Assembly (NCBI GenBank): GCA_019057865.1
Contig: JAHLWP010000049.1
Coordinates: 1 to 24,630 of the forward strand
DNA: 24,630 nt
Direction of reading: 5' to 3'
Source: Promethearchaeota archaeon
GTDB taxonomy: Archaea; Asgardarchaeota; Lokiarchaeia; Sigyniarchaeales; SOKP01
Under the pieces are notes generated by a model. That model made no database searches. It had not been told where the DNA came from and saw nothing but the letters and a program-made list of their open reading frames with translations. Below, one piece after another: positions 213 to 16,942 of this stretch (positions are counted from its first letter, which is position 1; every line of letters begins with the position of its first letter). The position numbers and the translations under genes were made by a program.

Positions 213-492
213 CTTCTAATTCAAATTTCTCCTTTACTCTTGTAATGAATTATATCATTACTTAATTGTAAATTACTCAACTAGCCTACATTTTTATATT
301 TAAACTTTTTTTATTAGACATTTTTTTCAATCAAAAGAACGAACATGGATTACGTAATATTGTTTTTAAAAAATTACATCTTAAGCTCTTTTTAAAAGAA
401 TTAGCAATTGCTCTGAATTATTTAAAATTGAGAGAACATTAAAAAAATTTTTAATTTAGGAAAAATTAAGATATTTAATAACGATATTTGAA

Positions 493-595
493 GCCTCTGT
501 TGCTTAGCCGGTAGAGCGTTGCCTTGGTAAGGCAAAAGATCGGAGCACATCACTTCGAACTGCTAGGGTCGCGGGTTCAATTCCCGCCGGGGGCT
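493..595 (+). tRNA. tRNA-Thr(GGT) with a 30-nt intron at about position 44/45 (537-566)
   Basis: Acceptor stem GCCTCTG/CGGGGGC, D stem GCTT/GAGC, anticodon arm TTGCC-TTGGTAA-GGCAA, T arm GCGGG-TTCAATT-CCCGC, discriminator T, no encoded CCA. Removing 537-566 restores the variable loop AGGTC. Confidence 0.9.
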
Positions 596-611
596 TAAAA
601 TTCATTGGATT

Positions 612-745
612 GCCGGTGTGGCTTAGCTGGTTATAAAGCCTTGGTGATTATGCTTGATCACAGCGCCAGACTCATAATCCTTCTGAAAAATTGGGTCAGA
701 CTGGATGTACTCTGGAGGTCGTGGGCTCGAATCCCACCACCGGCA
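612..745 (+). tRNA. tRNA-Met(CAT), probably elongator, with two introns (about 635-661 in the D arm; about 678-710 in the anticodon loop)
   Basis: Acceptor stem GCCGGTG/CACCGGC, anticodon arm CCAGA-CTCATAA-TCTGG after intron removal, variable loop AGGTC, T arm GTGGG-CTCGAAT-CCCAC. The GCC start fits an elongator Met better than the initiator (A1-U72). Confidence 0.85.
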
Positions 746-764
746 TTCTTATTCTTTAATTTTA

Positions 765-787
765 TCTAAATCCTCTAAGGATTTAGA
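765..787. terminator. Perfect 10-bp inverted repeat between tRNA-Met and the convergent DUF169 gene; possible terminator or processing hairpin
   Basis: TCTAAATCCT-CTA-AGGATTTAGA lies between two convergent 3' ends. The function is inferred from position only. Confidence 0.4.
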
Positions 788-827
788 CTAAATATTATAT
801 TTAAAAAAAATAATTTGGATAACTGAG

Positions 828-1640
828 CTATTTTTCTTTAACGAGAGTACTTCCCTCTCTCTTTTCTGCTCTTTTTTTGAAGGAAGTTTGGAATCCTGGT
901 TTATAATTCATATATTTAGGAATAGGGTACCTCAATCCTGCTTTATGAGTTGCTGCTAAACCTTCTATAATCATTTCCAATTTACTTTTAGGAATAGAGA
1001 ACATCACTTCATAATCTTCTGCGCCTCCCCATACTCTATCTCCATTTCCTAAAATTATTAATTGAGGTTTATCAGTTTGATAGGTTTTAATCACTCCAAG
1101 GTGACAAGAGCCAAACCTACCTGCATCAGTAAACTCTAGTACTCCACCTTCCATATAAAGATATGCTTGGGTTAATCGCATTGCTTGAGCAGGTAGACAG
1201 TAGATTTGAACCACATCTGGTTCAACTTTAGTTCGCGTTAAGGGTGAAATTACAAGCCCCATATATTCATTATTTAGGAAGAATAGATGATTTTGAATTT
1301 TTGCGGATGTTGCTAAATCTTTTGCGTATAACCCTAAATTGAATTTTTGACCCCACTCAGTCATCTCTTCCGTGAATAAATCCCACCCATAAACTGCTCT
1401 AGCTAGCTTACAGACACAATCTTTTTTCGTAACCACCATTGTCCAACCGTAAGTACGTACAATTTTAAAATTTTGACAGAGAAAATTCTGCAATTTCAAT
1501 GTTGAACTAGGTTGTTTACAATCTGGAGGAATTTCTTCTTTGCTTTTAATCAATTTGATAGCAATTGGAAATGTAAGAGGTCTTAAATATTCTTCAAATT
1601 TTTTTCCAAAGTCGTGATATAATTTCAAATTCTCACTCAT
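828..1640 (-). CDS. DUF169 family protein
   Basis: LRPLTFPIAIKL, LCQ...R..G, CVC...YGW, PDVVQIYCLPAQAMRL and GNGDRVWGG..DYEVMFSIP match the DUF169 pattern. Confidence 0.75.
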   Translation of the reverse strand: MSENLKLYHDFGKKFEEYLRPLTFPIAIKLIKSKEEIPPDCKQPSSTLKLQNFLCQNFKIVRTYGWTMVVTKKDCVCKLARAVYGWDLFTEEMTEWGQKFNLGLYAKDLATSAKIQNHLFFLNNEYMGLVISPLTRTKVEPDVVQIYCLPAQAMRLTQAYLYMEGGVLEFTDAGRFGSCHLGVIKTYQTDKPQLIILGNGDRVWGGAEDYEVMFSIPKSKLEMIIEGLAATHKAGLRYPIPKYMNYKPGFQTSFKKRAEKREGSTLVKEK

Positions 1641-1770
1641 TTTTTAAACCAGTTGGCTAAATTATTATTACTTATTATTATTAAGAAATGAATTATGAAC
1701 AATTATTTTTAATTAATATTTAGTTTTAACCTAAAAGGTTTTTTATTTCAAAATCTTAAATTAAATTGTT

Positions 1771-3342
1771 ATGAAATCATTTAATTCTGAAAAAATCACT
1801 TCTGAAGAGATGGCAATTTTAGATAATAACTCGGAATGGTTGGGCATTCCAAAAAGTTATTTAATGGAATGTGCAGGCTATTCTTTCGCAAGTGAAGTTA
1901 TCAATCGAGGTTACATAGGAAATAGTTCGAAAGTAGTTATTTTTTGCGGAACTGGTAATAATGGAGGGGATGGTTTTGTTATAGCAAGGCATTTATCTTC
2001 CTATGGAGTTAGATCTATAGTTATTTTAATAGGAGCTCCTGATAACATTAGGACCAATGAGGCGCAATTGAATTGGAATATAATTTTTAATAGTCTTAAT
2101 TATTCAATAGATATAGAAATTATTAGGGATACAAAAGATTTAAGCCATATTAAAAATATTATTGAAAAAGATAAAGAATATCAGATAATTGTAGATGGAA
2201 TATTAGGAACAGGGATTAAGGGTAAAATTAGGGAACCAATAGCTTCTACGATAGATTTAATTAATGATCTTAAAAAAGAAGAACCGGAAAGATTTAAAGT
2301 TGTTTCTATCGATCTTCCTTCTGGCTTAGATCCAAATACCGGAAAAGTTACCGATAAAGCTGTAAAGGCAGATTTAGTTATAACATTTCATAGGGCTAAA
2401 ATCGGAATGTCTAGAACTAATGAATACATGAAAGAAATATTAGAAAAATCAATAGGCATTCCACAAGAAGCTAGGTTATTTGTTGGAAGAGGTGATCTAA
2501 TCCCTACATTAAAATTAAGAAAAATAGATGCTTATAAAGGCCAATTTGGAAAAATTCTAATAATAGGTGGTTCAAAAAAATATTCTGGAGCACCTGCTTA
2601 TGCTTCTCTAACAGGAATTCATTTTGGATGCGATTTAGTAATAACCTATGTACCAGAAGTTATCGGCAATGTTATTAGAAGTTATTCACCGAATATGATT
2701 GTTAGAACTAATCCTGGAAATTGGTTAAACATAAAAGCCTTAGAAGAAATAAAAGAGTTGATAGATTGGTCTAATGCAATAGTAATTGGTCCAGGTTTAG
2801 GTATAGAAAAAGAAACAGAAGAATTAATAGTAAAGCTTCTAGGGTATTTAAAAGAGAAAAGGAAATCCTATGTTCTTGATGCCGATGCATTAAAATTAGT
2901 TAAGAATCATCTTGATTTGATTAAAGGTGAGAGAGCTGTCTTAACACCTCATCAAGGGGAATTAAAAATAATGGCTAATTTAGATTTACCTTCTTATGAT
3001 AAAATAGAAGAAAGAGCAAATATGATTTTTGATCTGGCAAAAAAGCTTAATACTACTCTTTTAGTAAAAGGTCCATATGATTATATCACAAATGGTAAAA
3101 AACTAAAAATTAATAGAACAGGTTGCCCTGAAATGTCGATTGGAGGAACTGGCGATGTTTTAGCAGGATTATGTGCCACTTTTCTAGCAACAAATAACGA
3201 TCCTTTTGAATCTGCGTGTTCATCAGCATTTCTTAATGGTTATATAGGAGAATATTGCAAAAAAAATTTAGGAGATCGCTTTACAACAACAGATATGATA
3301 GCTAACATTAATGATGCAATTGATAGCATAATCAGTTCATAA
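1771..3342 (+). CDS. nnr: Bifunctional NAD(P)H-hydrate repair enzyme (YjeF_N epimerase + ADP-dependent dehydratase)
   Basis: Epimerase motifs LMECAG, CGTGNNGGDG, VDGILGTG, SIDLPSG; dehydratase motifs KGQFG..LIIGGS..YSGAP, GPGLG, VLDADAL, LTPHQGE, GGTGDVLAG. Confidence 0.95.
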   Translation: MKSFNSEKITSEEMAILDNNSEWLGIPKSYLMECAGYSFASEVINRGYIGNSSKVVIFCGTGNNGGDGFVIARHLSSYGVRSIVILIGAPDNIRTNEAQLNWNIIFNSLNYSIDIEIIRDTKDLSHIKNIIEKDKEYQIIVDGILGTGIKGKIREPIASTIDLINDLKKEEPERFKVVSIDLPSGLDPNTGKVTDKAVKADLVITFHRAKIGMSRTNEYMKEILEKSIGIPQEARLFVGRGDLIPTLKLRKIDAYKGQFGKILIIGGSKKYSGAPAYASLTGIHFGCDLVITYVPEVIGNVIRSYSPNMIVRTNPGNWLNIKALEEIKELIDWSNAIVIGPGLGIEKETEELIVKLLGYLKEKRKSYVLDADALKLVKNHLDLIKGERAVLTPHQGELKIMANLDLPSYDKIEERANMIFDLAKKLNTTLLVKGPYDYITNGKKLKINRTGCPEMSIGGTGDVLAGLCATFLATNNDPFESACSSAFLNGYIGEYCKKNLGDRFTTTDMIANINDAIDSIISS

Positions 3343-3480
3343 TATTTTTGAAAAAAATTAAAAGCAATTAAAAAAATATAAGATTGTTAGGGAGTGCATT
3401 TTTGTTAAAATAAAAGTTTATTAACTCCTAATATTATTATATACTTAATTAATTATAATGAATCTTTGAGTTGAGGTAAA

Positions 3481-4323
3481 GTGGTTGGACTTCAAGTTTT
3501 CAAAATTCTACCCGATGGTACGACTACTGAAATTACTACCGATAAACCGATAAAAGACGTTTTAGAAACTAATGAGTGCTACGTTATTGTTGCTGATGAA
3601 GTTAGAAAAGTATATCTCTGGAAAGGAATCACAAGTAACGTTAGATCCAAATTCATTGGAGCTAAACTAAGCCAAGAAATCAGAGGACAAGTTGGTTTAC
3701 ATTATGCTGTACTTCCACTTGATGAGGGTGAAGAAGAACCAGAATTTATACAGTTGATTGGCGGAAAGACAGAAGCAGGTCATGCAAAAGAGATTAAAGC
3801 ACCAGTTACTCAAGCATCAGCTCCAGCGGTGCATCCTTTAAAGGGAAAAAATATTTTTGGTACTCCAAGACCAGCTGAAGGGATGAATATAGCAGGAAGC
3901 AAAGAACGTGCTGCTTTAAATAGAGGACCTTTATATACTGGAGAAGGTTCCATGGCAGCTCTTATGCGAGATGAAAGCCAAGTAGATTTTCAAGGTGTTA
4001 TGAAAAAATTAGAAAAAATTCAGATACCTGCTGGTTTTGAAAGAGAACTTATCATTATTGGAAATCAAGCGTATTCTGTTGTTGAAAAGGTTCAGCAATT
4101 TTTAGGTAAGAAAGAAGTTACAAAAGAGATATCAAAAGTAGGGTCCATTCCAGAAGGGATCTTTTTTGCTGAGGACTACTCACCTCGCATTTTGTCAGAA
4201 AATGGAAAAATTATTGCTATTGAATTTTTAAAACGCGCTGGTGTACCAATAAAACCAGTACAATCAAAAAATAAAAGAGAAATCTTAAAAGAACAAATTA
4301 AAGAGCAACTTGGGGGAAATTAG
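3481..4323 (+). CDS. Asgard gelsolin-domain protein (one gelsolin domain, linker, C-terminal extra domain; 1DGelX-like)
   Basis: N-terminal LETNECYVIV...KVYLWKGITSN...KFIG...LDEGEEEPEF is a gelsolin repeat. GTG start preceded by GAGGT. Confidence 0.85.
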   Translation: MVGLQVFKILPDGTTTEITTDKPIKDVLETNECYVIVADEVRKVYLWKGITSNVRSKFIGAKLSQEIRGQVGLHYAVLPLDEGEEEPEFIQLIGGKTEAGHAKEIKAPVTQASAPAVHPLKGKNIFGTPRPAEGMNIAGSKERAALNRGPLYTGEGSMAALMRDESQVDFQGVMKKLEKIQIPAGFERELIIIGNQAYSVVEKVQQFLGKKEVTKEISKVGSIPEGIFFAEDYSPRILSENGKIIAIEFLKRAGVPIKPVQSKNKREILKEQIKEQLGGN

Positions 4324-4548
4324 AAATAATATTCCTTCCAGCTTCTATTTTCTTATTAAATAATTCTAAAATAAATGATTATTAAAAGCTAATTCTTAAA
4401 CTTACTTTCTTTTGATTGATTTAATTAATTACTTCAATTAAATTGAGAAAACTATAACTAAACTTTAAAGTATAACTAGGATTTAAAATTTGAGATATAA
4501 ATTTTTAAACATAAAACACTTTATAATTATTAATTGAATTAAAAATAA

Positions 4549-4953
4549 TTGTTGCAGCCAAAATTGTCCGATTTATCACCACAAGAAGCTCAAAGTTTAA
4601 GTAAGTTTTTAGGTAGTATAACTGAATACACAGAGTTAGAAGCCCTAGCTTTGGTGACTCGTGAAGGCTTACGCTTAGCATTTTCATGTGTTCCTGGGTA
4701 TAACATAGATCCTGATTTATTTTCAAGCCTTAGTGCTGTAGTTATGCAATCTGGCTATGACGCAGTTAATTCTCTTGGATATACTCATATGCTTGAAGTA
4801 GTATTGAGAGGAGAAAATGGATTTATAATTCTCTCAGCAGCCGGAAGATTCTTTCTCATGGGTGCTTCAAGACAAACTGCAGATTTGGGTAAAGTAGTCA
4901 CGGTATTCAGATATTACGCAGGAGAGATCTCTAAACGATACCCAATGTCATAA
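4549..4953 (+). CDS. Roadblock/LC7 (MglB-like) domain protein
   Basis: EALALVTREGLRLA, DPDLFSSLSA, EVVLRGENGFIILSAAG and a terminal helix LGKV...FRYYA; 134 aa; TTG start. Confidence 0.85.
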   Translation: MLQPKLSDLSPQEAQSLSKFLGSITEYTELEALALVTREGLRLAFSCVPGYNIDPDLFSSLSAVVMQSGYDAVNSLGYTHMLEVVLRGENGFIILSAAGRFFLMGASRQTADLGKVVTVFRYYAGEISKRYPMS

Positions 4954-5143
4954 TTTTTTAACCTTTATTAAAAAAATCATTAAAAAAAATTTTAGTAGAA
5001 TATCTGTTAGGAATTAAAATTTTAGAATCAATTATGATTTTCAAGTTAAATCCCCATTATTGTGTTATTATAAAAACACTTATTTTAAAAAAGATAAATA
5101 TATTAATTTATAGATAGTGTAAAAATAAATTTGAGATTTTATC

Positions 5144-7306
5144 ATGCCAGAAATTAAAATTTTTGTCGATGTGAATGACGAAATTACAAATAAAGTTGTA
5201 ATCTGTCAATCAAATGCCGATAAATTAGGAGTTAAAAATGGGGGGTCAATAGAAGTTGTAAATCCTGATAATAACTTAAAGAAAACTGCAACTTTAGAGA
5301 TATCTGATATGGTGCTAGATTTTGCAGGGCAAGTTGCCAAAAATGTACTTGATGATTTACAATTTAGCGGAGTTGAATTAGCTATTCGCCCAGTAAGTGC
5401 AGCATCATCCCTTACACCTATGTTAAAAATTCCAAAAGTTCCAGCACCAAAACCAACTCCAACACCTCAACCATCCCAACCATCTACTTTATCTCCATTA
5501 CCTACACCACCACCTAGTGTAACTCCATCCCCTCAACCTACACCTGAACCAACTTTTACACCAGCTCCCGTTCCCCAGCCCATATCAACTCCACAACCGG
5601 CACCAGTACCTCAGTTTAAGCCACCTCCTCAACCCACCCCCACCCCTCAACCATCATTATCCCCTTTGCCTACTCCCCCTCCTCAGCCAACTCCTGCTCA
5701 ATTCACTCAACCATCTATGGGACAGCCTTCAATAGAACCCGTAGCTCCAGCAGAACCATATCCAAATAGAATAGATCTAAATATGTTACAAAGTCAGAAA
5801 AATGGAATAATTTTAACATCAGTTATTGATAATTCTATAGAAGGAGGGCGAATACAACTGAGTAATTCCATTATTCAACGATTAGGTCTAGGACAAGGAA
5901 TGCTTATAGCATGGGAAGATCCATTAACACGAGCTATGGGCTCAGCAAGAATAGATGCAGCAAATATTTTAGATACTCAAATTAAAATGAGTTATGATAC
6001 TAAAGAAGATACAAACATTCACTCACAACAAATTGTTGTTTATTCCACAGAACCTCCAATACAAAAAGCTTCGGAAATAATGCTAGAGGTTCAATCACAA
6101 CCTAATTTGATGGGACATGCTTTAGTTAGCCCAAGAACTCAATATACACTTTCAATAATGCAAGATGATATACTTGCATTTGAAGATGAATTAACAGGAG
6201 CGATCGGAGCTGGTAAAGTTGAAATCTTAGAATCAGTGGCAGATAATACAATTATTATCGATAGTGAAATTCTTGAAGCCTCAGGTATCGGGAGCTTTGA
6301 GGTTAAAGTTTCAAAAAATCAAAGAGCTATTATCCCTCTACAAAATATTTCGCTAGGAATTTCCCCTATTTCGGGTGAAAATATGTGGGAAATTATAAGT
6401 ACTGCTCGACAAAATGTAGCATCCTTAAAAGGCTGGATCTCGAATTATATTATTTTCAAGGGTATTAAACTTAGATGGTCAGCAGTCAATATTGCTTGTT
6501 CAATTCTTAATACTGTTCCTGATCTTACCGGAGATATTTTCGCTAAGGTCACAGAAAATACAGCATTAAGTTTAAGTCCAACTGGGTTGGTCCCTTTTAA
6601 CGCTATTTTGATAATTGATATCAGCCGTTCGATGATGGCGAGGGATGTGCTCTGCATAAACATTGCTCCCGCCATTGAGGGGATAAAAGCCGCAATGGAA
6701 TCTAGAGAAGTCCAAGAATTTTTAAAACATTTCAAAGATGGCATTTACATACCCCGTAGAATATCAGCAGCATTCGCAGCTGTACTCTTCTTGAGCGAGA
6801 AAGTAGGGAGAGGTTTTGGAGAAAAGGTCTCAATAATACGCTTTGCGGACGAAGCACAAATACTCCCCTTTGGAAATTTATTTTATATGGATTCTGCAAG
6901 TGGTAAAAAAGGAGTTCTTGAAGATGCAGCAAGGTTGATCGTCGATAGAATCGGCAATGCCTATGGGCAAGCTACAGCAATGGGTGCTGGAATGATGAAG
7001 GCTAACCAGGTGCTAGGAGAGTTCCAAAAAATGAGCCCAGACCAGCCGACGATGATCGTGCTTTTGACAGACGGTATAGCTACGGACGGGACGCTGTTTC
7101 TTGATGAAATCAAAAAACTGGCAGATAATGTACACGTCGTTATGTACATTGTTGGCCTAGGAAACCCAGATCGGGAACTGATGCAGCGTGCAGCGTCTTT
7201 ATGCGGCGGCGAATATTTTGAGCCGGAAGATGCTGGAGAACTGTTAATATGGTATTCAAAGCGAGCAAGAGATCTAACAGTTAAGCTTAAAGCGCATAAA
7301 GGTTAG
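5144..7306 (+). CDS. vWA-domain protein with CDC48-N-like (double-psi barrel-like) repeats and a proline-rich linker
   Basis: C-terminal vWA with intact MIDAS (DISRS at aa 492; T in QATAM; LLTDG; YIVGLG; GGEYF). Three N-terminal repeats of the type VVICQSNADKLGVKNGGSIEV. The vWA call is strong; the CDC48-N call is moderate. Confidence 0.75.
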   Translation: MPEIKIFVDVNDEITNKVVICQSNADKLGVKNGGSIEVVNPDNNLKKTATLEISDMVLDFAGQVAKNVLDDLQFSGVELAIRPVSAASSLTPMLKIPKVPAPKPTPTPQPSQPSTLSPLPTPPPSVTPSPQPTPEPTFTPAPVPQPISTPQPAPVPQFKPPPQPTPTPQPSLSPLPTPPPQPTPAQFTQPSMGQPSIEPVAPAEPYPNRIDLNMLQSQKNGIILTSVIDNSIEGGRIQLSNSIIQRLGLGQGMLIAWEDPLTRAMGSARIDAANILDTQIKMSYDTKEDTNIHSQQIVVYSTEPPIQKASEIMLEVQSQPNLMGHALVSPRTQYTLSIMQDDILAFEDELTGAIGAGKVEILESVADNTIIIDSEILEASGIGSFEVKVSKNQRAIIPLQNISLGISPISGENMWEIISTARQNVASLKGWISNYIIFKGIKLRWSAVNIACSILNTVPDLTGDIFAKVTENTALSLSPTGLVPFNAILIIDISRSMMARDVLCINIAPAIEGIKAAMESREVQEFLKHFKDGIYIPRRISAAFAAVLFLSEKVGRGFGEKVSIIRFADEAQILPFGNLFYMDSASGKKGVLEDAARLIVDRIGNAYGQATAMGAGMMKANQVLGEFQKMSPDQPTMIVLLTDGIATDGTLFLDEIKKLADNVHVVMYIVGLGNPDRELMQRAASLCGGEYFEPEDAGELLIWYSKRARDLTVKLKAHKG
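5432..5764 (+). repeat. Low-complexity Pro/Thr/Gln coding linker with a duplicated PTPTPQPS..LSPLPTPPP motif
   Basis: About 110 aa of P-rich sequence on a C-rich + strand; the motif occurs twice. Confidence 0.85.
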
Positions 7307-7531
7307 TTTTTTCTTTTACCAAAATAACTTTAAATTTCTTTTTAAATATTGTACTAAGAGTTATAAATTCAAATTTTAGATTATTTTGAGTTTTTACTTA
7401 TTAATTGATTTTTCGCAAATATGAATTACATTAAAATTATTAATAATAATTTTAATAATTATTATAACAAAATTAGATCCATAACTTATTGTATTAAATT
7501 TGTAATAATCATTAAATAACAATAAAAGAGG

Positions 7532-7948
7532 TTGTTGATAATCAAAGACGTTAAAATTATAACCATAGACAATCGTGGCAGAATTGTGATTCCTTTGGTT
7601 ACTCGCAAAAGTTTAGGTCTTACAACTAATACTCAATTAATGTTAGTGAGTGATTCAGAAACTAAAGAGATAAAAATAACACCAGTAGGTATTTCAGAGG
7701 AAGAGAAGCCAATAAAATTCAGGATCACTATGGAGGATATCCCAGGAGCTTTAGCTAAAATTGCTACAACTTTTGGAGATATGGGGATTTCTTTAATATA
7801 TGGTGAGTCTGCAATTGTAGAGAAGGATAAAATAGCGATTTGGACTGTGATTAGTCCCACTCCAAAAGGAATTACTTTGAAGGAATTAAGAGAGAAGTTA
7901 ATAGAAAACGGAGAAGCGCTTAATGTTGAGGTTCTTCCATTAGATTAA
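7532..7948 (+). CDS. AbrB/MazE-type DNA-binding domain fused to an ACT domain; putative regulator
   Basis: TIDNRGRIVIP..TRKSLGL (AbrB swapped hairpin) then FRITMEDIPGALAKIA..FGDMGISL (ACT). GAGG upstream. Confidence 0.8.
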   Translation: MLIIKDVKIITIDNRGRIVIPLVTRKSLGLTTNTQLMLVSDSETKEIKITPVGISEEEKPIKFRITMEDIPGALAKIATTFGDMGISLIYGESAIVEKDKIAIWTVISPTPKGITLKELREKLIENGEALNVEVLPLD

Positions 7949-7995
7949 ATTGAAAATAATTAAAAAGCCTGTATTAAACATAGAGGTTAGTATAA

Positions 7996-8742
7996 ATGGG
8001 TAAAAAGAAAAAAAAAGCACAAAAGAAAGCAAAAGTACAAGAAAAACCCGAACAAGATACAGAGGTTGCAGGTTATTCATTAGGTAATGCTTTACAATCA
8101 GCAAAAAAAACGGAAACAACCTTACAAACTTTATTAAAGGGAGTATCTGAAGGAGATGGATTTGTATATCCGAAAAAAGAAACACAAAAGATTAAACCGC
8201 AGTTATCACATGAGAGTAAAAGAATAATAGCTGAAACTTATGTACTGGAAGATGTTCCTATAACTGAACAACTATTAGTTAAAAAAGGTGCAAGAACTCC
8301 AATAATGATGAAAGATAAACCAACTCAACCTCCTATTACATCAACAAAAGTAGAACCTTCTTTTATTAAAAAGGAAAATATCTATGAAAGATTAACTGAA
8401 TTTTTCGAGGGATTATTAAATGGATATACTGAGAGGTATAATATATGGGAAAATTCAATATCTGGTATTTTAGGTATAATACGTAAAATGCGTAAAATTA
8501 CAAAGAAAAATACAGAAGATCTAGTCGAATCCATCAAGAATTTGTATGAAAAAATTCAGGTAAATTTGGAACAGTTCAAGATAAAACGTAAAGAGGTTGA
8601 GAAAGTGGCAGGAGTAGATATTGAATCGATGTCAAATGAATTTAAAAGAGTTTTAGGAATGCTTGAATTACAAATAAAAGAATACCAATTAAAGAAGGTA
8701 GTAGATGACTATATACATAAAGAAAAACAAATTACTTATTAA
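7996..8742 (+). CDS. Hypothetical protein: Lys-rich disordered N-terminus, long amphipathic/coiled-coil C-terminal half
   Basis: 248-aa ORF, GAGGT upstream, closely spaced and co-oriented with its neighbours. Confidence 0.75.
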   Translation: MGKKKKKAQKKAKVQEKPEQDTEVAGYSLGNALQSAKKTETTLQTLLKGVSEGDGFVYPKKETQKIKPQLSHESKRIIAETYVLEDVPITEQLLVKKGARTPIMMKDKPTQPPITSTKVEPSFIKKENIYERLTEFFEGLLNGYTERYNIWENSISGILGIIRKMRKITKKNTEDLVESIKNLYEKIQVNLEQFKIKRKEVEKVAGVDIESMSNEFKRVLGMLELQIKEYQLKKVVDDYIHKEKQITY

Positions 8743-8788
8743 CTATATTACTTGTACTTTTATAAAATAAAATATTTTAGGATTTCAA

Positions 8789-9988
8789 ATGAATATGTCA
8801 TCTAAGAGCAATGACCAATTACGTCCATTGATTATTGACATTGGAAGTAATACATTTCGCCTTGGATGGGCTGGTGATGACTTTCCTGATATTATTGCTC
8901 CTAGTGTATATGTCGATATTAATGATTATTTATTTACATCTAATGTTATTGATGGATTAGAAGACATTTTTATTGATAAGGAAAATGTTGAGAATCATTT
9001 ATTCGGAAGTGATGCCTTAAAATATCAAAATATTTTAAAAATCCATGAGTTCAAGAAGGAAAATAATTTTACTATACTTACGAAATTCTTTTATTCCTAT
9101 TATCAACAATTAAAAATATCTGAAGAATATCAATTCAAACAACCAATTATTATTATTACTCCGTTTTTTATGCCTGAATTGACACAAAACAAACTAAGGG
9201 AAATTTTTTTTGATATTTTTGGGTTCCCATCTATTTTGTTTTTATCTGAAACTCAAGCTATTCTTTCCACCTTACAAAAAACAAGTGGGTTAGTTTTAAA
9301 TATGGGGGAATCAAATACGTATATTTCAACAATTTTTCATGGATTTACAAATGTAATGGCGAGGGATATTTTTCCAATTTCAGGCAATGATTTAACAAAT
9401 CATCTTCTTAACATGATTTTAACAAAAAAGAGTTCTGAGACTGCCATTTATCTTGATTATATGACAGCTAAAGAGATTAAAGAAAGATTATCATTATGTG
9501 TTCTTGATCCGATTGGAGAGATGAAGCGAGTAAAAGGAGGATTGACAATGTATAATAGAAATGTTAATTTACCAGATGGTTCCAATTTAGAAATAAATTT
9601 AGAAAGGTTTATGCTTATTGAGCCCATATTTGATCCAACATTAATTCATATAGATTATATTGGTTTAGGAGAAACAGTAGCAAAAGTTATAAAAACATGG
9701 GATCGGGAGAATTGGGAAGAACTAATACCAAATATTATTCTCTCTGGAGGAGGAAGTCTAGTCCCAGGATTAGATAAAAGACTAGAATTAGACCTGTCAA
9801 ATTACTTTTCAACTAAGATAAAAGACAAGATTAAAGTAACAGCGGCTTCTGGTAGAGAAAATATGGGCTGGATCGGGGGCAGTATTTTATCTTCTCAAGG
9901 GAAATTAAAAAAGGGATGGGAGGATAATCCAACCTTTAAAACATTAAAAGGACAAAATTTAGAAAATAATAATCAAAATCCAAATTAG
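8789..9988 (+). CDS. Divergent actin-related protein (actin family)
   Basis: PLIIDIGSNTFRLGWAGDDFP (phosphate 1), ISGNDLT, AKEIKERL, LPDG..LEINLERF..IEPIFDP, NIILSGGGSLVPGLDKRLE (adenosine motif), WIGGSILSS. Confidence 0.93.
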   Translation: MNMSSKSNDQLRPLIIDIGSNTFRLGWAGDDFPDIIAPSVYVDINDYLFTSNVIDGLEDIFIDKENVENHLFGSDALKYQNILKIHEFKKENNFTILTKFFYSYYQQLKISEEYQFKQPIIIITPFFMPELTQNKLREIFFDIFGFPSILFLSETQAILSTLQKTSGLVLNMGESNTYISTIFHGFTNVMARDIFPISGNDLTNHLLNMILTKKSSETAIYLDYMTAKEIKERLSLCVLDPIGEMKRVKGGLTMYNRNVNLPDGSNLEINLERFMLIEPIFDPTLIHIDYIGLGETVAKVIKTWDRENWEELIPNIILSGGGSLVPGLDKRLELDLSNYFSTKIKDKIKVTAASGRENMGWIGGSILSSQGKLKKGWEDNPTFKTLKGQNLENNNQNPN

Positions 9989-10013
9989 AAATATAAAACT
10001 GAAAATTATATAT

Positions 10014-12599
10014 ATGTCTGTTAGTTTAATTGTCAAAAAAGAATTTTTAGAGAATTTTCAAAAGAATATTATCCAAGGACGCAGGTTACTTCAATCAGCG
10101 AATCATGTGTGGGCTGATCGTTTATTAACTGATTTATATTTTGAAATCGAAAAGACAAAATGGTTAGATATTCAAAAAAAGCATCAGTTGATAATGGTAA
10201 TATCAAATTCATGGTGGATATACTTAAACTCACTTATAAAGAGAGATGAGGAACAGGTTGATATTGATTTAATAAGATATATTGATGCTTATAAAAGATT
10301 TTTCTCATTTTTATCTAAACTGAATGATTTTTACTTGTTTGATAGCTTCTGTACAAACTTACTTAAGACATTTATCAATTTGGAGGAAGTATCTCAAGTA
10401 GGAATAACAAAATTCATTAATTCTTTTTCAATAAAGCTAAAAGAAAGAGAAGAATATCTCAAATTAATAGAATTACAGATTTTATTGATGTTTTTAAGAA
10501 AATCTGTTATCCCTTCTGAATATTTCCACTTAAGCATGGAAATTTTAGGTCGAACAATATTTAAACTAGAACCAGCAAAAAGACCTTTATTTTTATATTT
10601 CTTTTTAGAAAATATCTGTTTAAAATATCAACTTATGGAGGATTCAGCTGAATTTGTAAAAATTATAAACAAAATTTTAGTTAATCGCCTTCCTGGATAT
10701 TTGAAAAATGAATTTAGTAATATAAGTAGGATTTCAATTAATGAAAGAAGCTTTAATACTATTTTAGTTGACCTTGAAGAGCTTATATATTATTTAAACG
10801 ATATTGGTGAATATCTGTGGATCATGATAATTATAAGAAATATATTTTACAAAATGCAAGAATATCAGTCATTTGGAGATGCTGTCACTTATATTCGAAA
10901 ATATATTGATTTTTCAATAAATAGAAATCGGTTTGAAATTGCTTATGAAATATATGATTTTTTAGAAGATTTATTTATGTTTCAAACAGATCTTTCTTAT
11001 GATAACATATTAATTGAGCTTTGGGTTGAAGCTTGTAAAAAATTCGTTGATATGAAAGAAAAAAGATATTTGCTTCAGTCTTTAGAAAAATTGAATACTC
11101 ATTTAAAGATGCCTCAAACAAGTGCTCAAATTTTTCATTATTTCTATACATGTAATCTACTTTGGAAATTTAAATCAATGTTCTTTTCTTTAGAACAACG
11201 CGATTTCTGGAGAATGATGTTCTATCGAGCATTATTTGAAGAAAAAAATTATAATCTTGCTCAAAAAATTCTCCTTCATTTAGATGAAAAATTTATTAAA
11301 ATTATCACCAATTTAATTACATTGTATAATGAATCTGAACCTTTAAAAAATCAGATCTATTCATTTGTAGATGAAATTACTCCAATATACCTACAAGATT
11401 TTGTTATAAAACAGATAATCATAAGAATAAACTCTAAAGGTATTATTAGTTATCGAATGATATCATTAGATAATCAAATTGTTGAGGGATCAATAGTTAC
11501 CGAATTTTGGAATGATACTCAAATTCTCGAAATATTTAATGAACTGTTTTCTGAATCAGAACATAAGAAATATTTTTTTAATTTCACAGAATACGGTCAG
11601 CTGTTTTATATTTTTTTACCTGAATTAGTTAGAGATTTTTTTAAATCGTTTAAATTTGAAAGTTTGAATTTAGTACCTCAGATATACTTTATATTAGATA
11701 ATATGACTATTCCTTTTGATTTAATATATGATAATAATTTTTTCTTGTTAAAATATTCAACAGGTTATAAAATTGGCGAAGCACCTTTAGGTGGTATTGC
11801 TTTTGAACAAATTAGTCAAGAAGAGCCAGAATCCGAACCCTCTCAAAATATTTGTAATGCATTAATTATTGAAGCTATAAATTCAACGGGTCCAAAAAGA
11901 TGGAATGAAGATATTAAAAATAAGGAATTGATTTTTCCTTTTCCAGCCGGAGCCAATGAGCTAAACTATATAATAAATTTTCTTAATGAGAGAGATGAAG
12001 TAAATCAAATAACTCATTTAATTGGAGCAGCTTCAACTCGGGAAACAATTCTCTCGCATATATCTGATGGAGCATATCATATCATAATTTTTGTTGGAAA
12101 CATATTTTATTCTAAATGGAGCCCAAATGATAGTTTTTTCATAAGTAATGATGGAAATATTATAACAATAAACGAGATTAATAAACTTATAAACCAAAAT
12201 AAAGCAAATTTACAACCTTTTTTATTTTTTAATGCTCAAATCTATAATGTTGAGGGAAAAAAATTAAGAAATGTTTTAAGGAAATTAGGTGAAATTGTAG
12301 CTCAATTTGATTATGATAGGATTACAGGTATTATATCTCGTAATTACCCTATTTTTAATGATGAAGCAAATGAGATTATAGCAAATTTTTTCACTTATTT
12401 ATTTCAAGGGGATAGTCAAGGAATAGCCCTTCTTACAGCACGGCAACAATGTATCTCTGAAAAAATGATTAAACTAGTTGAAAAACAGTTTAAAGATCTA
12501 ACAACAGATGATGGAAGTAAACATATTGATTTAGAAAGTAGTTTAGCTTTATCCAGTTACATCTTGTTTGGAAAGCCATGGAAAAAATTAGTATTTTAA
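10014..12599 (+). CDS. Helical-solenoid protein with a C-terminal CHAT (caspase-like) domain lacking the catalytic His/Cys
   Basis: CHAT-like motifs in the expected order: YGQLFY.FLP, IPFDLI, FPAGANE, LIGAASTRE, IIIFVGN, FFNAQ, YPIFND.A...F, ALLTARQ, YILFGKP. Confidence 0.75.
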   Translation: MSVSLIVKKEFLENFQKNIIQGRRLLQSANHVWADRLLTDLYFEIEKTKWLDIQKKHQLIMVISNSWWIYLNSLIKRDEEQVDIDLIRYIDAYKRFFSFLSKLNDFYLFDSFCTNLLKTFINLEEVSQVGITKFINSFSIKLKEREEYLKLIELQILLMFLRKSVIPSEYFHLSMEILGRTIFKLEPAKRPLFLYFFLENICLKYQLMEDSAEFVKIINKILVNRLPGYLKNEFSNISRISINERSFNTILVDLEELIYYLNDIGEYLWIMIIIRNIFYKMQEYQSFGDAVTYIRKYIDFSINRNRFEIAYEIYDFLEDLFMFQTDLSYDNILIELWVEACKKFVDMKEKRYLLQSLEKLNTHLKMPQTSAQIFHYFYTCNLLWKFKSMFFSLEQRDFWRMMFYRALFEEKNYNLAQKILLHLDEKFIKIITNLITLYNESEPLKNQIYSFVDEITPIYLQDFVIKQIIIRINSKGIISYRMISLDNQIVEGSIVTEFWNDTQILEIFNELFSESEHKKYFFNFTEYGQLFYIFLPELVRDFFKSFKFESLNLVPQIYFILDNMTIPFDLIYDNNFFLLKYSTGYKIGEAPLGGIAFEQISQEEPESEPSQNICNALIIEAINSTGPKRWNEDIKNKELIFPFPAGANELNYIINFLNERDEVNQITHLIGAASTRETILSHISDGAYHIIIFVGNIFYSKWSPNDSFFISNDGNIITINEINKLINQNKANLQPFLFFNAQIYNVEGKKLRNVLRKLGEIVAQFDYDRITGIISRNYPIFNDEANEIIANFFTYLFQGDSQGIALLTARQQCISEKMIKLVEKQFKDLTTDDGSKHIDLESSLALSSYILFGKPWKKLVF

Positions 12600-12665
12600 T
12601 CATTTATTTTCCTTAAATTTATATAAATTTAATTTAGATTATTTATTTATAACAATAAGTGGATG

Positions 12666-12710
12666 TATATTGAGTTGCCCCGACAATTAAACTCCGGCAC
12701 ACTCAGTATA
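12666..12710 (+). promoter_or_regulatory. Stem-loop (14 bp, one bulged C, 16-nt loop) upstream of the PLD-like gene
   Basis: TATATTGAGT-TGCC pairs with GGCA-(C)-ACTCAGTATA and includes one U-G pair. Confidence 0.45.
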
Positions 12711-12743
12711 AAAACATTAACCAAGTTTACCAAAGCGAGAAAA

Positions 12744-13283
12744 ATGTCGGATAGATTAATAGAACTTAGAGTTAAAAATAAAAGACTTAAAGACCAAGTG
12801 TTAAGTTTGGAAGAGAAAGTTTTATCATTAGTAGGAATGATTAGCTTAGAAACGTCAGGAGGATTAACTAAGAAAAATGTGTTAAACGATCAACTAATTA
12901 ATTTAATTCAGGAAACAAAAGAACAACTAAATATTGTGTCTCCTAAAATTGATAGATTTTATGCAACAGAGTTAAAGAAAGTTGTGCAAAGAGGAATGCC
13001 TGTATTAATAATAACTAATGATAGAGGAGGAATTCCACAAGAATATCATGAATACTATGATGAGCTTAAAGCTACACCCGGAATAAACATAATAAATAAT
13101 CCAAATGTGAAATACTTATTAGTTTTTAATACAGAATTGGCTATTTATGCAGGAGGGTCCTTGGATAAAGAAGAGTTAGAAAGATCAATTTTAATTGTCA
13201 CAATGGTAAAGGAAACATCAAAGTTAAGACAAATTGCTGAAATTTTTAGTTTAATGCTCCCTTCATTCATGAGAGGCAAATAA
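12744..13283 (+). CDS. Coiled-coil + PLD-like (PLD/TrmB-middle fold) protein lacking the HKD motif
   Basis: LINLIQETKEQLNIVSP, L...VQRG..VLIITN and AIYAGGSL follow the PLD-fold pattern; the HxK(x)4D site reads NVKYLLVFNT. The start at 12744 (MSDRL) is preferred over 12663 because the upstream part forms a hairpin. Confidence 0.65.
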   Translation: MSDRLIELRVKNKRLKDQVLSLEEKVLSLVGMISLETSGGLTKKNVLNDQLINLIQETKEQLNIVSPKIDRFYATELKKVVQRGMPVLIITNDRGGIPQEYHEYYDELKATPGINIINNPNVKYLLVFNTELAIYAGGSLDKEELERSILIVTMVKETSKLRQIAEIFSLMLPSFMRGK

Positions 13284-13344
13284 TTCTAACTTTTTTTAAT
13301 ATGATATTTCCTTTTAATTTTAATTAAAGAAAAGGTCAACTTTT

Positions 13345-13506
13345 ATGAATAAAGCTTTGAATGAAAAATCTCAAGAGGGTTTGAAAGATATCAGGATAAA
13401 AGAAAATAAGATCAAATCAAAAAGAGTAAAAATTATTGTTGATGAAAATTCTGAATTCGATTGGGATTGGATTTTTGATAGAGAATGGTTGAGGACAAAA
13501 AAATAA
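13345..13506 (+). CDS. Small hypothetical protein, 53 aa (below the ORF-track cutoff)
   Basis: MNKALNEKSQEGLKDIRIKENKIKSKRVKIIVDENSEFDWDWIFDREWLRTKK*. It fills the gap, has AAGGT upstream and overlaps the methyltransferase start by 22 nt. Confidence 0.5.
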   Translation: MNKALNEKSQEGLKDIRIKENKIKSKRVKIIVDENSEFDWDWIFDREWLRTKK

Positions 13507-15677
13507 TTAACTCTAAAGTCATTTTAAACGCTTTTGGATTAAATTCTAGTATTTTCAAAGATTCTTTGAATTTCCTTGAAAAAGAAGCAGAAATCAATGA
13601 GGAAAAATTCCAAAAAAAATTAAAGGTATGGGAATCACTCTTCAGGAGCTTTTATGGAAAAGAAACAGATTCTAAATTATTTATAAAACATTCCTATTTT
13701 GCCTTAATTTTAAAAGTTTTAATTTTGAGTAAATTATGTATCATTCAGAATAAGAATACAGAAGAGATTTACCAATTTATAAAATCTAATAACTTTGATG
13801 CCTTAAATATTTTTGAGTTTGAATATTTCAACTGGACTCATTTTGATCGATTAATATTTAAAAAAATCTATCATATAATTGAAAAAACCAGTTTTGCACA
13901 ACAGGATTTGTTTCAAAGTCTCTATCAACAAATTTTTTTAACGCTAACAAGGCATAAAATAGGAGAATTCTATACGTTTCCTAACCTTGTTAAGAAAATG
14001 GTCGATGATTTTTATGAATTTGGGCTAAAAATATTGGATCCATCCTGTGGTTCAGGGAGTTTTCTGATAGATATTGTAATTAGTATTATTAATTCAAATA
14101 ATCCAGATTCCTCAAAAATTGAGGCTATCAATAAAGTCTATGGCTTTGATATAAACCCTTTAGCAACATTAACTGCTAAAGTTAACCTTTATTTATTATT
14201 TTTAGAATATTTTGACCTAAAGAATAATAAATTACCTAAAATTAATATATTTTTATTAGATTCTCTATTTCCTGACCAGTATGAAAAAAAAATTAATGCA
14301 GATATTCAGAAATTATATAGTACTTTTGACTTAATTATTGGCAACCCTCCTTGGTTAACTTATAAAGACATATATAGCAAAACCTATCAAAATAAAATAA
14401 GGAGTTTATCAAATAATCTGGGAATTAAACCCCGTAGTCAATATATTACACATATAGAATTAGCAGCTATATTCTTCTATGCTATTCCTTTGAAATTCTT
14501 AAAAATTAACGGAAAAATATTTTTCGTCATTACTAAAAGTGTTTTAAATGGTGACCATTGCTTTAAATTTAGAGGTTTTTCAATTTTTAACAATTTAGAA
14601 ATCTGGGATTTTCCCAAAGGTTATTTCTTTAATGTGAACCATGTCTGCTTGAAAGCAAGATATATTGGTAAGAATAGTAATATCTCACTTTCTGAAAAGT
14701 ATCCTATTAGAACCAAAATTTTTAACAATAATCTAGAAAATCTAGAAGAAACTTATTATTCAAGCTTAAAAATCGAAAATAATGGCGCAAAATTATTACT
14801 CCCTGAAAAACAACTAAAAATTATTAGTGAACTATCAAATAGTAAATATAAGAATATGTTTTTCCAAGGAGCTACTTTAGTTCCTCGGACATTAGTCTTT
14901 TTTCAGGTCGATGAAAAAAAGAATGGCCTTCTTGTAATATCTTCAGACCTAGATACTTTATCAAGGGCAAAAAGTAGATGGAAATTTACTTTTAAAAATA
15001 AAGAAATTGAGAAAATTTTTAGATATAGGACCTTTTTAAATAGAGACCTTGTACCTTTTTGCATAAAACAATTGAAAAATGTGTTTCTTCCTATCAATGA
15101 GAGTTTTGATTTTGATCAAAAATATCTTCAGAAATATCCTAAAGCTATGAGTTTCTATAAGGAAATGAACACTCTTTATCAAACGCATAAAAAAGAAACT
15201 AGTAGCATAAATACTTTATATGAAAATCTAAATTACTGGAATAAATTAAAAAAGCAAGTCAAAATTAAAAGTTATATTGTTATATACAATGCGAGTGGTT
15301 CCAATGTTAAAGCAGCTGTTATAAACAAGAATAAACAAAGAATTATAATTGGTTCAGAAAATTATTACTATTCAACTGAATCTGAAAATGAAGCCTATTA
15401 TTTATCAGCTATATTAAATGCTCCTAATTTATCAAAATATATAAAATTAATAAAAAGTTCCAGACATATTCATAAACGACCGTTTATGTTTCCAATCCCT
15501 ATATATGATGATAAAAATGAAAACCATAGGTTACTAGCGAAATTAGGGAAAAAATATCATGCTTTTGTTGAAGATTTGGTTAAAAATAATCCCAACATCA
15601 CTTCAGAAAAAGTGAGAATATTCATTAATCGGAAGTTAATGAAATTAGAACAATTAACTCAAGTTACTGTTTTTTAA
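13485..15677 (+). CDS. Gamma-class N6-adenine DNA methyltransferase with C-terminal target-recognition region (type IIG/Eco57I-like, no evident nuclease domain)
   Basis: GEFYT (motif X), ILDPSCGSGSFL (motif I), YGFDINP (motif II), FDLIIGNPPW (motif IV); EAYYLSAILNAP in the C-terminal region. Confidence 0.9.
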   Translation: MVEDKKIINSKVILNAFGLNSSIFKDSLNFLEKEAEINEEKFQKKLKVWESLFRSFYGKETDSKLFIKHSYFALILKVLILSKLCIIQNKNTEEIYQFIKSNNFDALNIFEFEYFNWTHFDRLIFKKIYHIIEKTSFAQQDLFQSLYQQIFLTLTRHKIGEFYTFPNLVKKMVDDFYEFGLKILDPSCGSGSFLIDIVISIINSNNPDSSKIEAINKVYGFDINPLATLTAKVNLYLLFLEYFDLKNNKLPKINIFLLDSLFPDQYEKKINADIQKLYSTFDLIIGNPPWLTYKDIYSKTYQNKIRSLSNNLGIKPRSQYITHIELAAIFFYAIPLKFLKINGKIFFVITKSVLNGDHCFKFRGFSIFNNLEIWDFPKGYFFNVNHVCLKARYIGKNSNISLSEKYPIRTKIFNNNLENLEETYYSSLKIENNGAKLLLPEKQLKIISELSNSKYKNMFFQGATLVPRTLVFFQVDEKKNGLLVISSDLDTLSRAKSRWKFTFKNKEIEKIFRYRTFLNRDLVPFCIKQLKNVFLPINESFDFDQKYLQKYPKAMSFYKEMNTLYQTHKKETSSINTLYENLNYWNKLKKQVKIKSYIVIYNASGSNVKAAVINKNKQRIIIGSENYYYSTESENEAYYLSAILNAPNLSKYIKLIKSSRHIHKRPFMFPIPIYDDKNENHRLLAKLGKKYHAFVEDLVKNNPNITSEKVRIFINRKLMKLEQLTQVTVF

Positions 15678-15796: not shown

Positions 15797-16942
15797 CTGA
15801 AATTTGAAGATTTAGGTATAAATAAAAAAAATATTAGCGCTTTAAAAAGTCTAAATATAAACTTACCCACCCCTGTCCAGAAAAAAGCAATTCCTTTAAT
15901 TCTGAAGGGCCAAAATATTATGGCTCAGGCAAAGACGGGAAGTGGTAAGACTTTAGCATTTGTTCTTCCAATTTTTGAGCGTTTAGAAGGTATTAGAAAT
16001 GAGGCACTTATTTTAACTCCTACAAGAGAACTTGCGAAACAAGTCAACCAAGTAATTAAAGATTTAGGGAATTCAGTTAAATCTATGACTATATATGGGG
16101 GTGTTTCAATTAATAATCAGATAAGAAAATTGGATCAGGGAGTTCACATAATAGTTGGTACACCTGGTCGAATCATCGATCTCTATAAAAGGAAGAACTT
16201 AAAATTAAATAATATAAGATTTGTTGTTGTTGATGAAGCAGATCGATTATTTGATATGGGATTTGCTCCTGATGTTAAATATATTTTAAATCAAATCAAA
16301 ACCAACTACCAATTTCTGCTATTTTCTGCTACGCTTCATAATAATATTAGAGAATTAGTGAAGAAGTATTCTAAAAATAAATTTCAATTTATTAATTTAA
16401 GTAGAGATAATTTAACTGTAAGTAGCACTAAACAATTTTATTATTTGATTGATCGATTTGAAGAAAAATTTAAAACTTTCCTGAAGATATTAAGAAGAGA
16501 AAAACCAAAGCATACTTTAGTATTCGTTAATACAAAAAAAACTGCAGAGTGGCTAAATAGACGGTTAAAATCAACTCATAATTTTTATTATAAAGTGGGT
16601 ATTATTTCAGGAAATTTATCTCAACATCAACGAGAAAAAATCTTAAATTCCTTTAGAACTTATAAAATTAATATGCTCATAGCTACAGATGTTGCCTCAA
16701 GAGGTTTGGATATTGAAAATATCTCACATGTAATAAATTATGATGTTCCTAAATATCCAAACATTTATGTTCATCGAATTGGGCGAACTTCCCGAATGAA
16801 TAAACATGGTGTTGCTATTACACTATGTTTAAAAGATGAGTATGAATATCTATGTCATATTGAAGGTTTAATTGATAAAGAAATTAGGCTAAAAACATTA
16901 CAATACCAGGAACAAGAAAGATACCATAATCCTTTTTATTAA
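15797..16942 (+). CDS. DEAD-box RNA helicase (probable CTG start at 15797)
   Basis: The Q motif FEDLG...PTPVQKKAIP lies upstream of the track's ATG. Other motifs: AKTGSGKT, PTRELA, YGG, TPGR, DEAD, SAT, ATDVASRGLD, HRIGRT. Confidence 0.93.
   Translation: MKFEDLGINKKNISALKSLNINLPTPVQKKAIPLILKGQNIMAQAKTGSGKTLAFVLPIFERLEGIRNEALILTPTRELAKQVNQVIKDLGNSVKSMTIYGGVSINNQIRKLDQGVHIIVGTPGRIIDLYKRKNLKLNNIRFVVVDEADRLFDMGFAPDVKYILNQIKTNYQFLLFSATLHNNIRELVKKYSKNKFQFINLSRDNLTVSSTKQFYYLIDRFEEKFKTFLKILRREKPKHTLVFVNTKKTAEWLNRRLKSTHNFYYKVGIISGNLSQHQREKILNSFRTYKINMLIATDVASRGLDIENISHVINYDVPKYPNIYVHRIGRTSRMNKHGVAITLCLKDEYEYLCHIEGLIDKEIRLKTLQYQEQERYHNPFY

Follow-up and report, generated by a model that had tools for sequence, protein, structure and literature searches.

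A divergent actin gene and a pseudo-protease gene nested within an older gene pair in Lokiarchaeia-type archaea

Among the described systems closest to the gene cluster discussed here are the crenactin arcade of Thermoproteales, in which crenactin is accompanied by arcadins 1-4 (Izore et al., 2016; PMC5173319), and ParMRC. Both combine an actin homologue with lineage-specific partners, one of them rich in coiled coil, and in the arcade the cluster neighbours proved to be direct binders (PMC5173319). The cluster in question lies in a 24,630-nucleotide (nt) stretch of DNA from a Promethearchaeota archaeon (contig JAHLWP010000049.1), hereafter called the window, with coordinates given on its forward strand. 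Open reading frame (ORF) reading places five genes at positions 7532-13283, all on the plus strand and here named A to E. They encode a small AbrB-like and ACT protein (A), an orphan protein (B), a divergent actin (C), a helical solenoid followed by a CHAT domain (D) and a leucine-zipper helix followed by a PLD fold (E). The general plan recalls arcade and ParMRC. Unlike in the arcade, however, the partners include a pseudo-protease and a pseudo-PLD protein, and unlike crenactin, which is a bona fide filament former, C is fast-evolving and has a degenerate hydrolysis loop. Pfam and NCBIfam scans did not suggest an arcadin-like family in B, D or E; no arcadin sequence was compared.

Asgard archaea encode several actin-related proteins (ARPs), and literature searches brought up neither a function nor a partner for them. 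For instance, three actin homologues other than lokiactin are described in Candidatus (Ca.) Lokiarchaeum ossiferum (Rodrigues-Oliveira et al., 2022; PMC9834061). The published quantitative PCR (qPCR) primers for one of these, UYP47647.1, match the C orthologue of this species exactly, which identifies that orthologue as UYP47647.1. In the published tree UYP47647.1 is grouped with ARPs, and its transcript in L. ossiferum was several-fold below that of lokiactin by reverse-transcription qPCR (PMC9834061). The passages of that report on the ARPs treat them singly, without partners, operon or function, whereas at the present locus C is locked to a pseudo-CHAT gene between B and E.

Two of the partners have described relatives of their own. 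D shares its layout, a helical solenoid and then a caspase-fold CHAT domain, with Csx29 of the type III-E Craspase, with DdvA and with separase. Unlike these proteins, D lacks the His/Cys dyad and occurs without Cas7-11, Csx30, sigma factor or securin in its context; instead, its conserved neighbour has an actin fold. A search for a Craspase association (Cas7-11/gRAMP, Csx30) found no cas domain among the neighbour ORFs scanned in the window and in the loci of a second family. E resembles the C-terminal domain of TrmB and TrmBL2 and the FAM83 DUF1669 domain, which are scaffold PLD folds without the HKD motif, and it likewise lacks the catalytic His. Its layout of a helix and then an HKD-less PLD fold corresponds to the part of TrmB/TrmBL2 outside the DNA-binding domain. 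Unlike the TrmB family, however, E has no winged-helix DNA-binding domain, is only 179 residues long and carries its own LPSFMR tail. Full-text literature searches found no paper describing the cluster, in line with an earlier sequence-only reading of this DNA, which had offered the combination as a candidate undescribed module. New here are the state with B and E only, the wider range of E, the primer-based identification of the C orthologue with UYP47647.1, and the comparisons of evolutionary rate and of the ratio of nonsynonymous to synonymous substitution rates (dN/dS).

Two nested gene pairs

The cluster is most safely described as an ARP/pseudo-protease gene pair (C and D) nested in an older pair (B and E), with both a complex of the products and its role being hypothetical. 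Families of the genomes compared are labelled f1 to f7, f1 being the window's own, and genera g2, g5, g8, g9 and g11. The order B-C-D-E is kept in three families (f1, f2 and f3) of one Asgard order, with identities of only 22-50% in f2 and f3 and with different flanks. In f3 the order is A-B-C-D-E. In f2 it is B-C-D-E, preceded on the 5' side by genes for Hef and a PHP protein, and this family includes Promethearchaeum syntrophicum MK-D1 and Ca. L. ossiferum Loki-B35, both of which carry B-C-D-E. Within f1 the entire region, from window gene g02 to g12, is syntenic and gives little information on the module itself.

A search of 400 genomes of the phylum found D in 117 of 134 f1 genomes, 7 of 14 f2 genomes and the single f3 genome; elsewhere in this set it was not found, save for two weak matches in f5 that cover the CHAT region only. 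Five f1 genomes without D also lack E and the vWA gene that precedes the cluster. The region is missing or unassembled there, with a clear orthologue of window gene g03 only in one of them (G221, at a contig end), so these absences are uninformative. In approximately 40 inspected loci from the three families, C and D were never found apart from B and E. The C-D junction is also the tightest in the cluster. Here the gap is 22 nt in the median; f3 and g11 show overlaps of 4 nt, and in two genomes of the genus of MK-D1 the gap measures 1-5 nt. The start/stop overlaps indicate coupled translation.

E extends more widely than D, being present in 12 of 14 f2 genomes, and distant E-like proteins are found in f5 to f7. 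In three genomes of genus g2 and in genus g5, B and E are directly adjacent without C and D. A profile search found neither C nor D anywhere in these genomes, where only three other actin paralogues are present. Genus g2 includes Ca. Harpocratesius repetitus, whose genome is closed in a single contig; here about 110 nt separate B from E, and neither C nor D has left a trace. In one g5 genome (G030) the order is A-B-E, with about 20 nt between B and E and again no trace of C or D. When the tree of E is rooted on the distant E-like proteins, f3 is the first branch and g2 is nested among the C-D-bearing genera g11, g8 and g9 (support 98/95), which makes joint loss of C and D the parsimonious reading. 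Judged from these genomes, C and D are a tight pair: co-inherited, co-lost and translationally coupled.

All five genes are maintained. Compared with the nearest genome (G012), dN/dS is 0.14 for A, 0.35 for B, 0.16 for C, 0.15 for D and 0.22 for E, similar to the downstream flanking genes with 0.25 and 0.18. Since the motif losses described below are family-wide and accompanied by purifying selection, they are ancestral losses in genes that have been kept, and the dyad of D was lost before the order diversified. The sequence-only reading had proposed a module built around the ARP, to be judged by synteny and by dN/dS, among other checks. Both comparisons came out in its favour: gene order persists beyond the genus, in three families whose flanks differ, and each of the five genes shows purifying selection despite motif loss. 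The local decay that would have undone it is likewise contradicted by the family-wide loss of the catalytic residues of D and E. The central place it gave to the ARP had to be abandoned, because B and E are adjacent without C and D in Harpocratesius and a second genus, and the E family reaches other families of the class.

In the three f2 loci examined, E is followed by an ORF of 381-405 residues without a Pfam domain (Table 1). L. ossiferum has a gap of 146 nt between the two, against 28-33 nt in MK-D1 and Harpocratesius. This ORF may be an extra member specific to f2; it was not counted as part of the module, because it lacks a Pfam domain and no relative of it was found in the window's genome.

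Folds and altered motifs of the encoded proteins

The CHAT domain of D has lost its catalytic dyad. The window's copy matches Pfam CHAT only below the cut-off (E 0.009), but 17 of 21 orthologues match the family (PF12770), at best with E 6.8e-11. A profile of the D family run against 1.84 billion representatives retrieved only about 20 full-length clusters at 50% identity. The next matches (E 1e-15 to 1e-6) cover the C-terminal part only, and the ten that were scanned are all bona fide CHAT proteins. An AlphaFold2 model of D (predicted local distance difference test score, pLDDT, 85; predicted template modelling score 0.76) contains about 24 helices in residues 5-447, then a small beta unit and an alpha/beta domain. 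In Foldseek, the model matches Csx29 (3e-10), the CHAT anti-sigma factor DdvA (3e-8) and separase (1e-6) over its whole length, and the fold also matches SAVED-CHAT, gingipain and MALT1; a sequence search of the PDB returned nothing for D. The two catalytic motifs read IIIFVGN in place of the CHAT IIHFAGH and FFNAQI in place of FLNACxS. The His position is Asn in all orthologues but one, and the Cys position is occupied by Q, K, V, R or H and never by Cys, so that the domain and fold are present and the dyad is replaced in all aligned orthologues. No second CHAT gene, active or otherwise, was found in the window's genome.

A relative of the same genus (G003) carries a D orthologue, 71% identical, whose frame is interrupted by TAA codons at residues 490 and 623. 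The window has Gln at the first of these positions, and the G003 frame is otherwise intact. These codons could be a recent pseudogenisation or an assembly error.

C is a recognisable actin with an altered nucleotide pocket. It matches PF00022 over the whole fold (residues 9-377) with 166 bits against a cut-off of 27. When all four actin-family genes of the window's genome are scored against this model (444, 291, 219 and 162 bits), C comes last. The best PDB matches of the C family profile, at about 200 bits, are conventional actins and not Arps. In the alignment with lokiactin, the phosphate-2 loop reads NMGES where actin has DxGDG, H161 is replaced by Tyr and the D-loop by a longer, conserved, lineage-specific insert. 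The window's copy retains the phosphate-1 loop (DIGS), the GGGS adenosine loop and Q137, so that the full set of ATPase motifs (phosphate-1, DxGDG, Q137, H161 and adenosine loop) is only partly kept. In f2 the pocket is more degenerate, with Q137, S14 and K18 lost. Over genome pairs in which lokiactin is 88-96% identical, C is only 27-50% identical, evolving approximately ten times faster. Such a rate is more in keeping with an accessory subunit than with a main load-bearing filament. Judged by its sequence, C fits the description of a fast-evolving actin paralogue whose phosphate-2 loop is degenerate better than that of a proven pseudo-enzyme.

E consists of one long helix (residues 2-29) and an alpha/beta domain in a model with a pLDDT of 85. 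The window's copy reaches 21 bits against the Pfam PLDc_2 cut-off of 27. In Foldseek, NucT (2e-8) is among the best matches, together with the single-HKD nucleases Nuc and Zucchini and with PLD1-4. TrmBL2 chains match at 8e-7 to 5e-6 over 170-189 columns, long enough to take in the helix, TrmB is matched as well, and the FAM83 DUF1669 pseudo-PLD domain follows at about 2e-6. No winged helix or helix-turn-helix (HTH) was found in E by Pfam or in the model, whose zipper helix begins at residue 2; the Pfam TrmB regulator model gave no match at an E-value limit of 0.1, and a sequence search of the PDB gave chance-level matches only. E thus has the PLD fold without the HxK(x)4D motif: Asn takes the place of the His in at least 90% of 21 aligned orthologues, and the Lys varies. 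Its C-terminal LPSFMR is invariant in the same 21 orthologues, and persists in genomes that lack C and D as well as in most of the distant E-like proteins. Docking of this tail into a groove of C or into the dead active site of D was considered and rejected, because the tail is equally conserved without C and D.

The distant E-like proteins show the same zipper, PLD fold and LPSFMR-type tail in other surroundings. In loci from f7 and f6 their genes overlap giant ORFs, 1900-2000 residues long and with FG-GAP, Ig-like and ribophorin-II-like domains, at the 3' end of these ORFs. Other copies follow long coiled-coil proteins whose last domain is a MarR-type winged helix, or lie near an Arf-like GTPase.

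The sequence-only reading had called the CHAT of D and the PLD of E dead and had listed C as a third enzyme fold with altered motifs. For D, orthologues, profile and fold now substantiate what had been a weak Pfam call, and for E the fold search and the orthologue alignment do the same. For C the altered motifs stand (NMGES, and Tyr for H161), but the retained phosphate-1 loop, GGGS and Q137 leave the word 'dead' unsupported.

The two small upstream genes are of different kinds. B begins with a polybasic tip (MGKKKKK), continues with a variable linker and ends in a conserved helical domain of about 125 residues. The best 120 of its 464 relatives are Asgard proteins from metagenome-assembled genomes, annotated as 'hypothetical protein' wherever named, and one of these 120 has a precomputed Pfam domain. 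Pfam gave nothing above cut-off for the window's B, no NCBIfam or Pfam family was found for it, and atlas look-ups with the whole protein and with the C-terminal domain retrieved its own cluster at most. By these searches B is an orphan family. A matches Pfam ACT above the cut-off (32 against 27 bits), and AbrB models fall just under theirs (MazE_antitoxin 17 against 24.7; TIGR01439 26 against 28.3). NF006352, a PRK08577-like model, scores 83 against a cut-off of 140. A is single-copy, with no paralogue found in the window's genome, and is probably a ligand-sensing regulator. It sits 5' of B in f1, f3 and g5. In most of f2 it is absent or replaced; in L. ossiferum two HTH regulators take its place before B.

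Interpretation of the cluster

The explanation that we prefer is a non-catalytic ARP/pseudo-protease pair, C-D, that was added to an older B-E pair, giving two nested pairs that are vertically inherited in, and specific to, one Lokiarchaeia-type order. In this model, C and D would form an obligate, non-proteolytic heteromer. The solenoid and pseudo-protease of D would act as a binding platform, by analogy with Csx29 for Cas7-11 and separase for securin, while C would be a nucleotide-dependent structural or switch subunit and no bulk filament former. B-E, as the older pair that is able to exist alone, would provide a coiled-coil oligomeric adaptor into which C-D plugs. In most lineages A would stand in front as a small-molecule-responsive regulator. 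Taken as a whole and including the complex, this model is about as probable as all other accounts together.

An arcade- or ParMRC-type filament system would have a precedent, as archaea and bacteria are both known to encode actin homologues beside dedicated regulators (PMC5173319). In such a system C would polymerise, and B, D and E would be nucleators, adaptors or depolymerisers, as arcadin-2 is to crenactin or ParR to ParM. The nucleotide-binding scaffold of C is mostly kept in f1, and a disordered linker with a conserved terminal domain, as in B, is typical of an adaptor. However, C evolves some ten times faster than lokiactin and has replaced the D-loop by its longer lineage-specific insert, its phosphate-2 loop is degenerate, in f2 along with Q137, S14 and K18, and the tail of E is conserved where C is missing and so is no C-specific groove binder. 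A filament system is therefore an unlikely explanation. Alternatively, the genes could form a conserved neighbourhood without a stable complex, held together by shared regulation or a shared pathway (for example through A), with B-E and C-D independent of each other and nested by chance. B-E does occur without C-D, E-like proteins elsewhere adjoin unrelated genes (giant surface proteins, coiled-coil proteins with a winged HTH, an Arf-like GTPase), and the f1 synteny that spans g02-g12 is uninformative. Yet the failure of C and D to part from B and E in some 40 loci of three families with different flanks, and the start/stop overlaps that indicate coupled translation, weigh against a mere neighbourhood, which is an unlikely explanation.

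A degenerate or non-canonical anti-virus defence island, made up of a TPR-CHAT protein, a PLD nuclease and the N6-methyltransferase and helicase genes downstream, was rejected. Although TPR-CHAT (Csx29), SAVED-CHAT and PLD nucleases (DrmC) are defence components, and a type IIG/PglX-like methyltransferase gene follows E in f1, the catalytic sites of D and E are missing across orthologues and the methyltransferase is unlinked to the cluster in f2 and f3. PADLOC returned nothing for D and only an E-value of 0.005 for E, and no cas genes lie nearby among the neighbour ORFs scanned in the window and the f2 loci. The genes are single-copy and their similarity drops with taxonomic distance, as expected from vertical descent, without patchy spread. 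A defence role is thus very improbable. Local decay, whereby the enzyme-like genes would be pseudogenes in the window's genome only, can point to the in-frame TAA codons of D in G003, but it is refuted by the same substitutions across orthologues of three families, by frames that are intact in nearly all genomes and by dN/dS of 0.15-0.22; its likelihood is negligible.

Several considerations weigh against the two-pair model itself. All its physical contacts are deduced from co-inheritance and gene spacing, and the cellular role is likewise a proposal. Since B-E occurs without C-D, the ARP is dispensable and one four-protein complex is not required, and a block that is inherited vertically can stay syntenic for purely regulatory reasons. 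That C and D were lost is read from a single tree of one 175-residue protein, in which the position of g5 is ambiguous. C retains D11, G13, S14, GGGS and, in this genome, Q137, and may therefore bind ATP, or even hydrolyse it and polymerise. A complex prediction for residues 265-861 of D with full-length C, run from separate alignments and without controls, scored 0.00, which is no answer and counts neither way.

A more specific version of the two-pair model is a long shot. C-D would be a nucleotide-gated ARP/pseudo-separase heterodimer on the lokiactin cytoskeleton, capping, nucleating or anchoring by analogy with dynactin and Arp2/3, and B-E would tether it to membrane or DNA through the polybasic tip of B. 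Were C-D to act on the lokiactin cytoskeleton, it would be the first Arp-containing machine outside eukaryotes. A C-D complex of any kind would mean that Arps in non-filament assemblies are not confined to eukaryotes, and would add a case of two pseudo-enzymes, of caspase and PLD fold, recruited as archaeal scaffolds.

Irrespective of this, the cluster names conserved and co-inherited partner candidates for one Asgard ARP, the clearest being the separase/Csx29-like pseudo-protease. Its presence in both cultured species, MK-D1 and L. ossiferum, makes pull-downs, localisation and structural work feasible. Harpocratesius, as a natural C-D deletion with B-E intact, offers a built-in comparison.

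Layout of the locus and neighbouring genes

Coordinates are collected in Table 1. The gaps between the five genes are 47 nt (A-B), 46 nt (B-C), 25 nt (C-D) and 144 nt (D-E). The frame of E is open from 12663, but its true start is Met28 at 12744, where the orthologues all begin. With this start, the gaps are exactly those of the sequence-only reading, and its description of full-length, uninterrupted frames holds for all five ORFs. Its assignment of A to the cluster needs qualification: A belongs to it in f1, f3 and g5 and is not a universal member. A T6 run upstream and a T7 run downstream could be putative terminators that mark the 5' and 3' limits of a transcription unit, and runs of at least five T are absent from all four internal gaps. 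This pattern is compatible with a single A-E unit, but is weak evidence in DNA with 14-26% G+C.

Table 1. Features of the window and of the loci compared.
Feature	Position	Strand	Description	Basis
T6 run	7307..7312	+	directly 3' of upstream vWA gene; putative terminator	sequence reading
A	7532..7948	+	AbrB-like and ACT small protein	ORF, Pfam
B	7996..8742	+	polybasic tip, variable linker, C-terminal helical domain	alignment
C	8789..9988	+	divergent actin-family protein	PF00022
C phosphate-2 loop	9299..9313	+	NMGES against actin DxGDG	alignment with the genome's lokiactin and orthologues
D	10014..12599	+	solenoid and CHAT	ORF, profile, model
D solenoid	10014..11354	+	residues 1-447, all-helical, TPR-like	AlphaFold2 model
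D beta domain and CHAT	11406..12599	+	residues 465-861, small beta domain and caspase-fold CHAT without dyad	profile, alignment, model
D Asn696 codon	12099..12101	+	CHAT catalytic His position	alignment with 10 bona fide CHAT domains
D Gln742 codon	12237..12239	+	CHAT catalytic Cys position	alignment with 10 bona fide CHAT domains
E	12744..13283	+	179 residues; leucine-zipper helix and one PLD-fold domain without the HKD His	model, alignment
E Asn121 codon	13104..13106	+	HxK histidine position	alignment of 21 orthologues
E tail LPSFMR	13257..13274	+	C-terminal family hallmark	alignment
T7 run	13291..13297	+	8 nt past the E stop codon; putative terminator	sequence reading
Genes 5' of A	3481..7306	+	280-residue, Roadblock/LC7 and vWA proteins	
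Methyltransferase gene	13485..15677		730-residue N6-adenine methyltransferase, 3' of E	
Helicase ORF	15920..16942		DEAD-box helicase	
L028 (G003)	4878..7469	-	D orthologue with two in-frame TAA	
L038 (f2)	10436..11650		381-405-residue ORF after E	
L039 (f2)	3246..4388		381-405-residue ORF after E	
L061 (Harpocratesius repetitus, JAIZWK010000001.1)	6047..7261		381-405-residue ORF after E	
L061 (Harpocratesius repetitus, JAIZWK010000001.1)	7297..8580		B and E without C and D	
L063 (G030, genus g5)	7122..8872		A-B-E without C and D	
L066 (f7)	5816..12501		giant ORF and overlapping E-like gene	
L070 (f6)	1..6281		giant ORF and overlapping E-like gene	

The genes on the 5' side of A, on the same strand, encode a 280-residue protein without a Pfam match (labelled gelsolin-like in the sequence-only reading), a Roadblock/LC7 protein (27 bits) and a 720-residue protein that combines a Pro-rich region with a vWA domain. 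The synteny of these three genes with the cluster does not extend beyond f1.

On the 3' side, E is followed by a gene for a 730-residue N6-adenine methyltransferase of type IIG/PglX-like character, with no nuclease partner seen. It follows E across most of f1, with 43-62% identity (94% in the nearest genome), and is not at this position in f2 and f3. Next, after a gap of 242 nt, comes a DEAD-box helicase ORF that begins at position 18 of the DEAD profile, just before Walker A. Its N-terminal Q-motif region is seemingly missing, or another start is used; as orthologues align from residue 1, this is a conserved trait.

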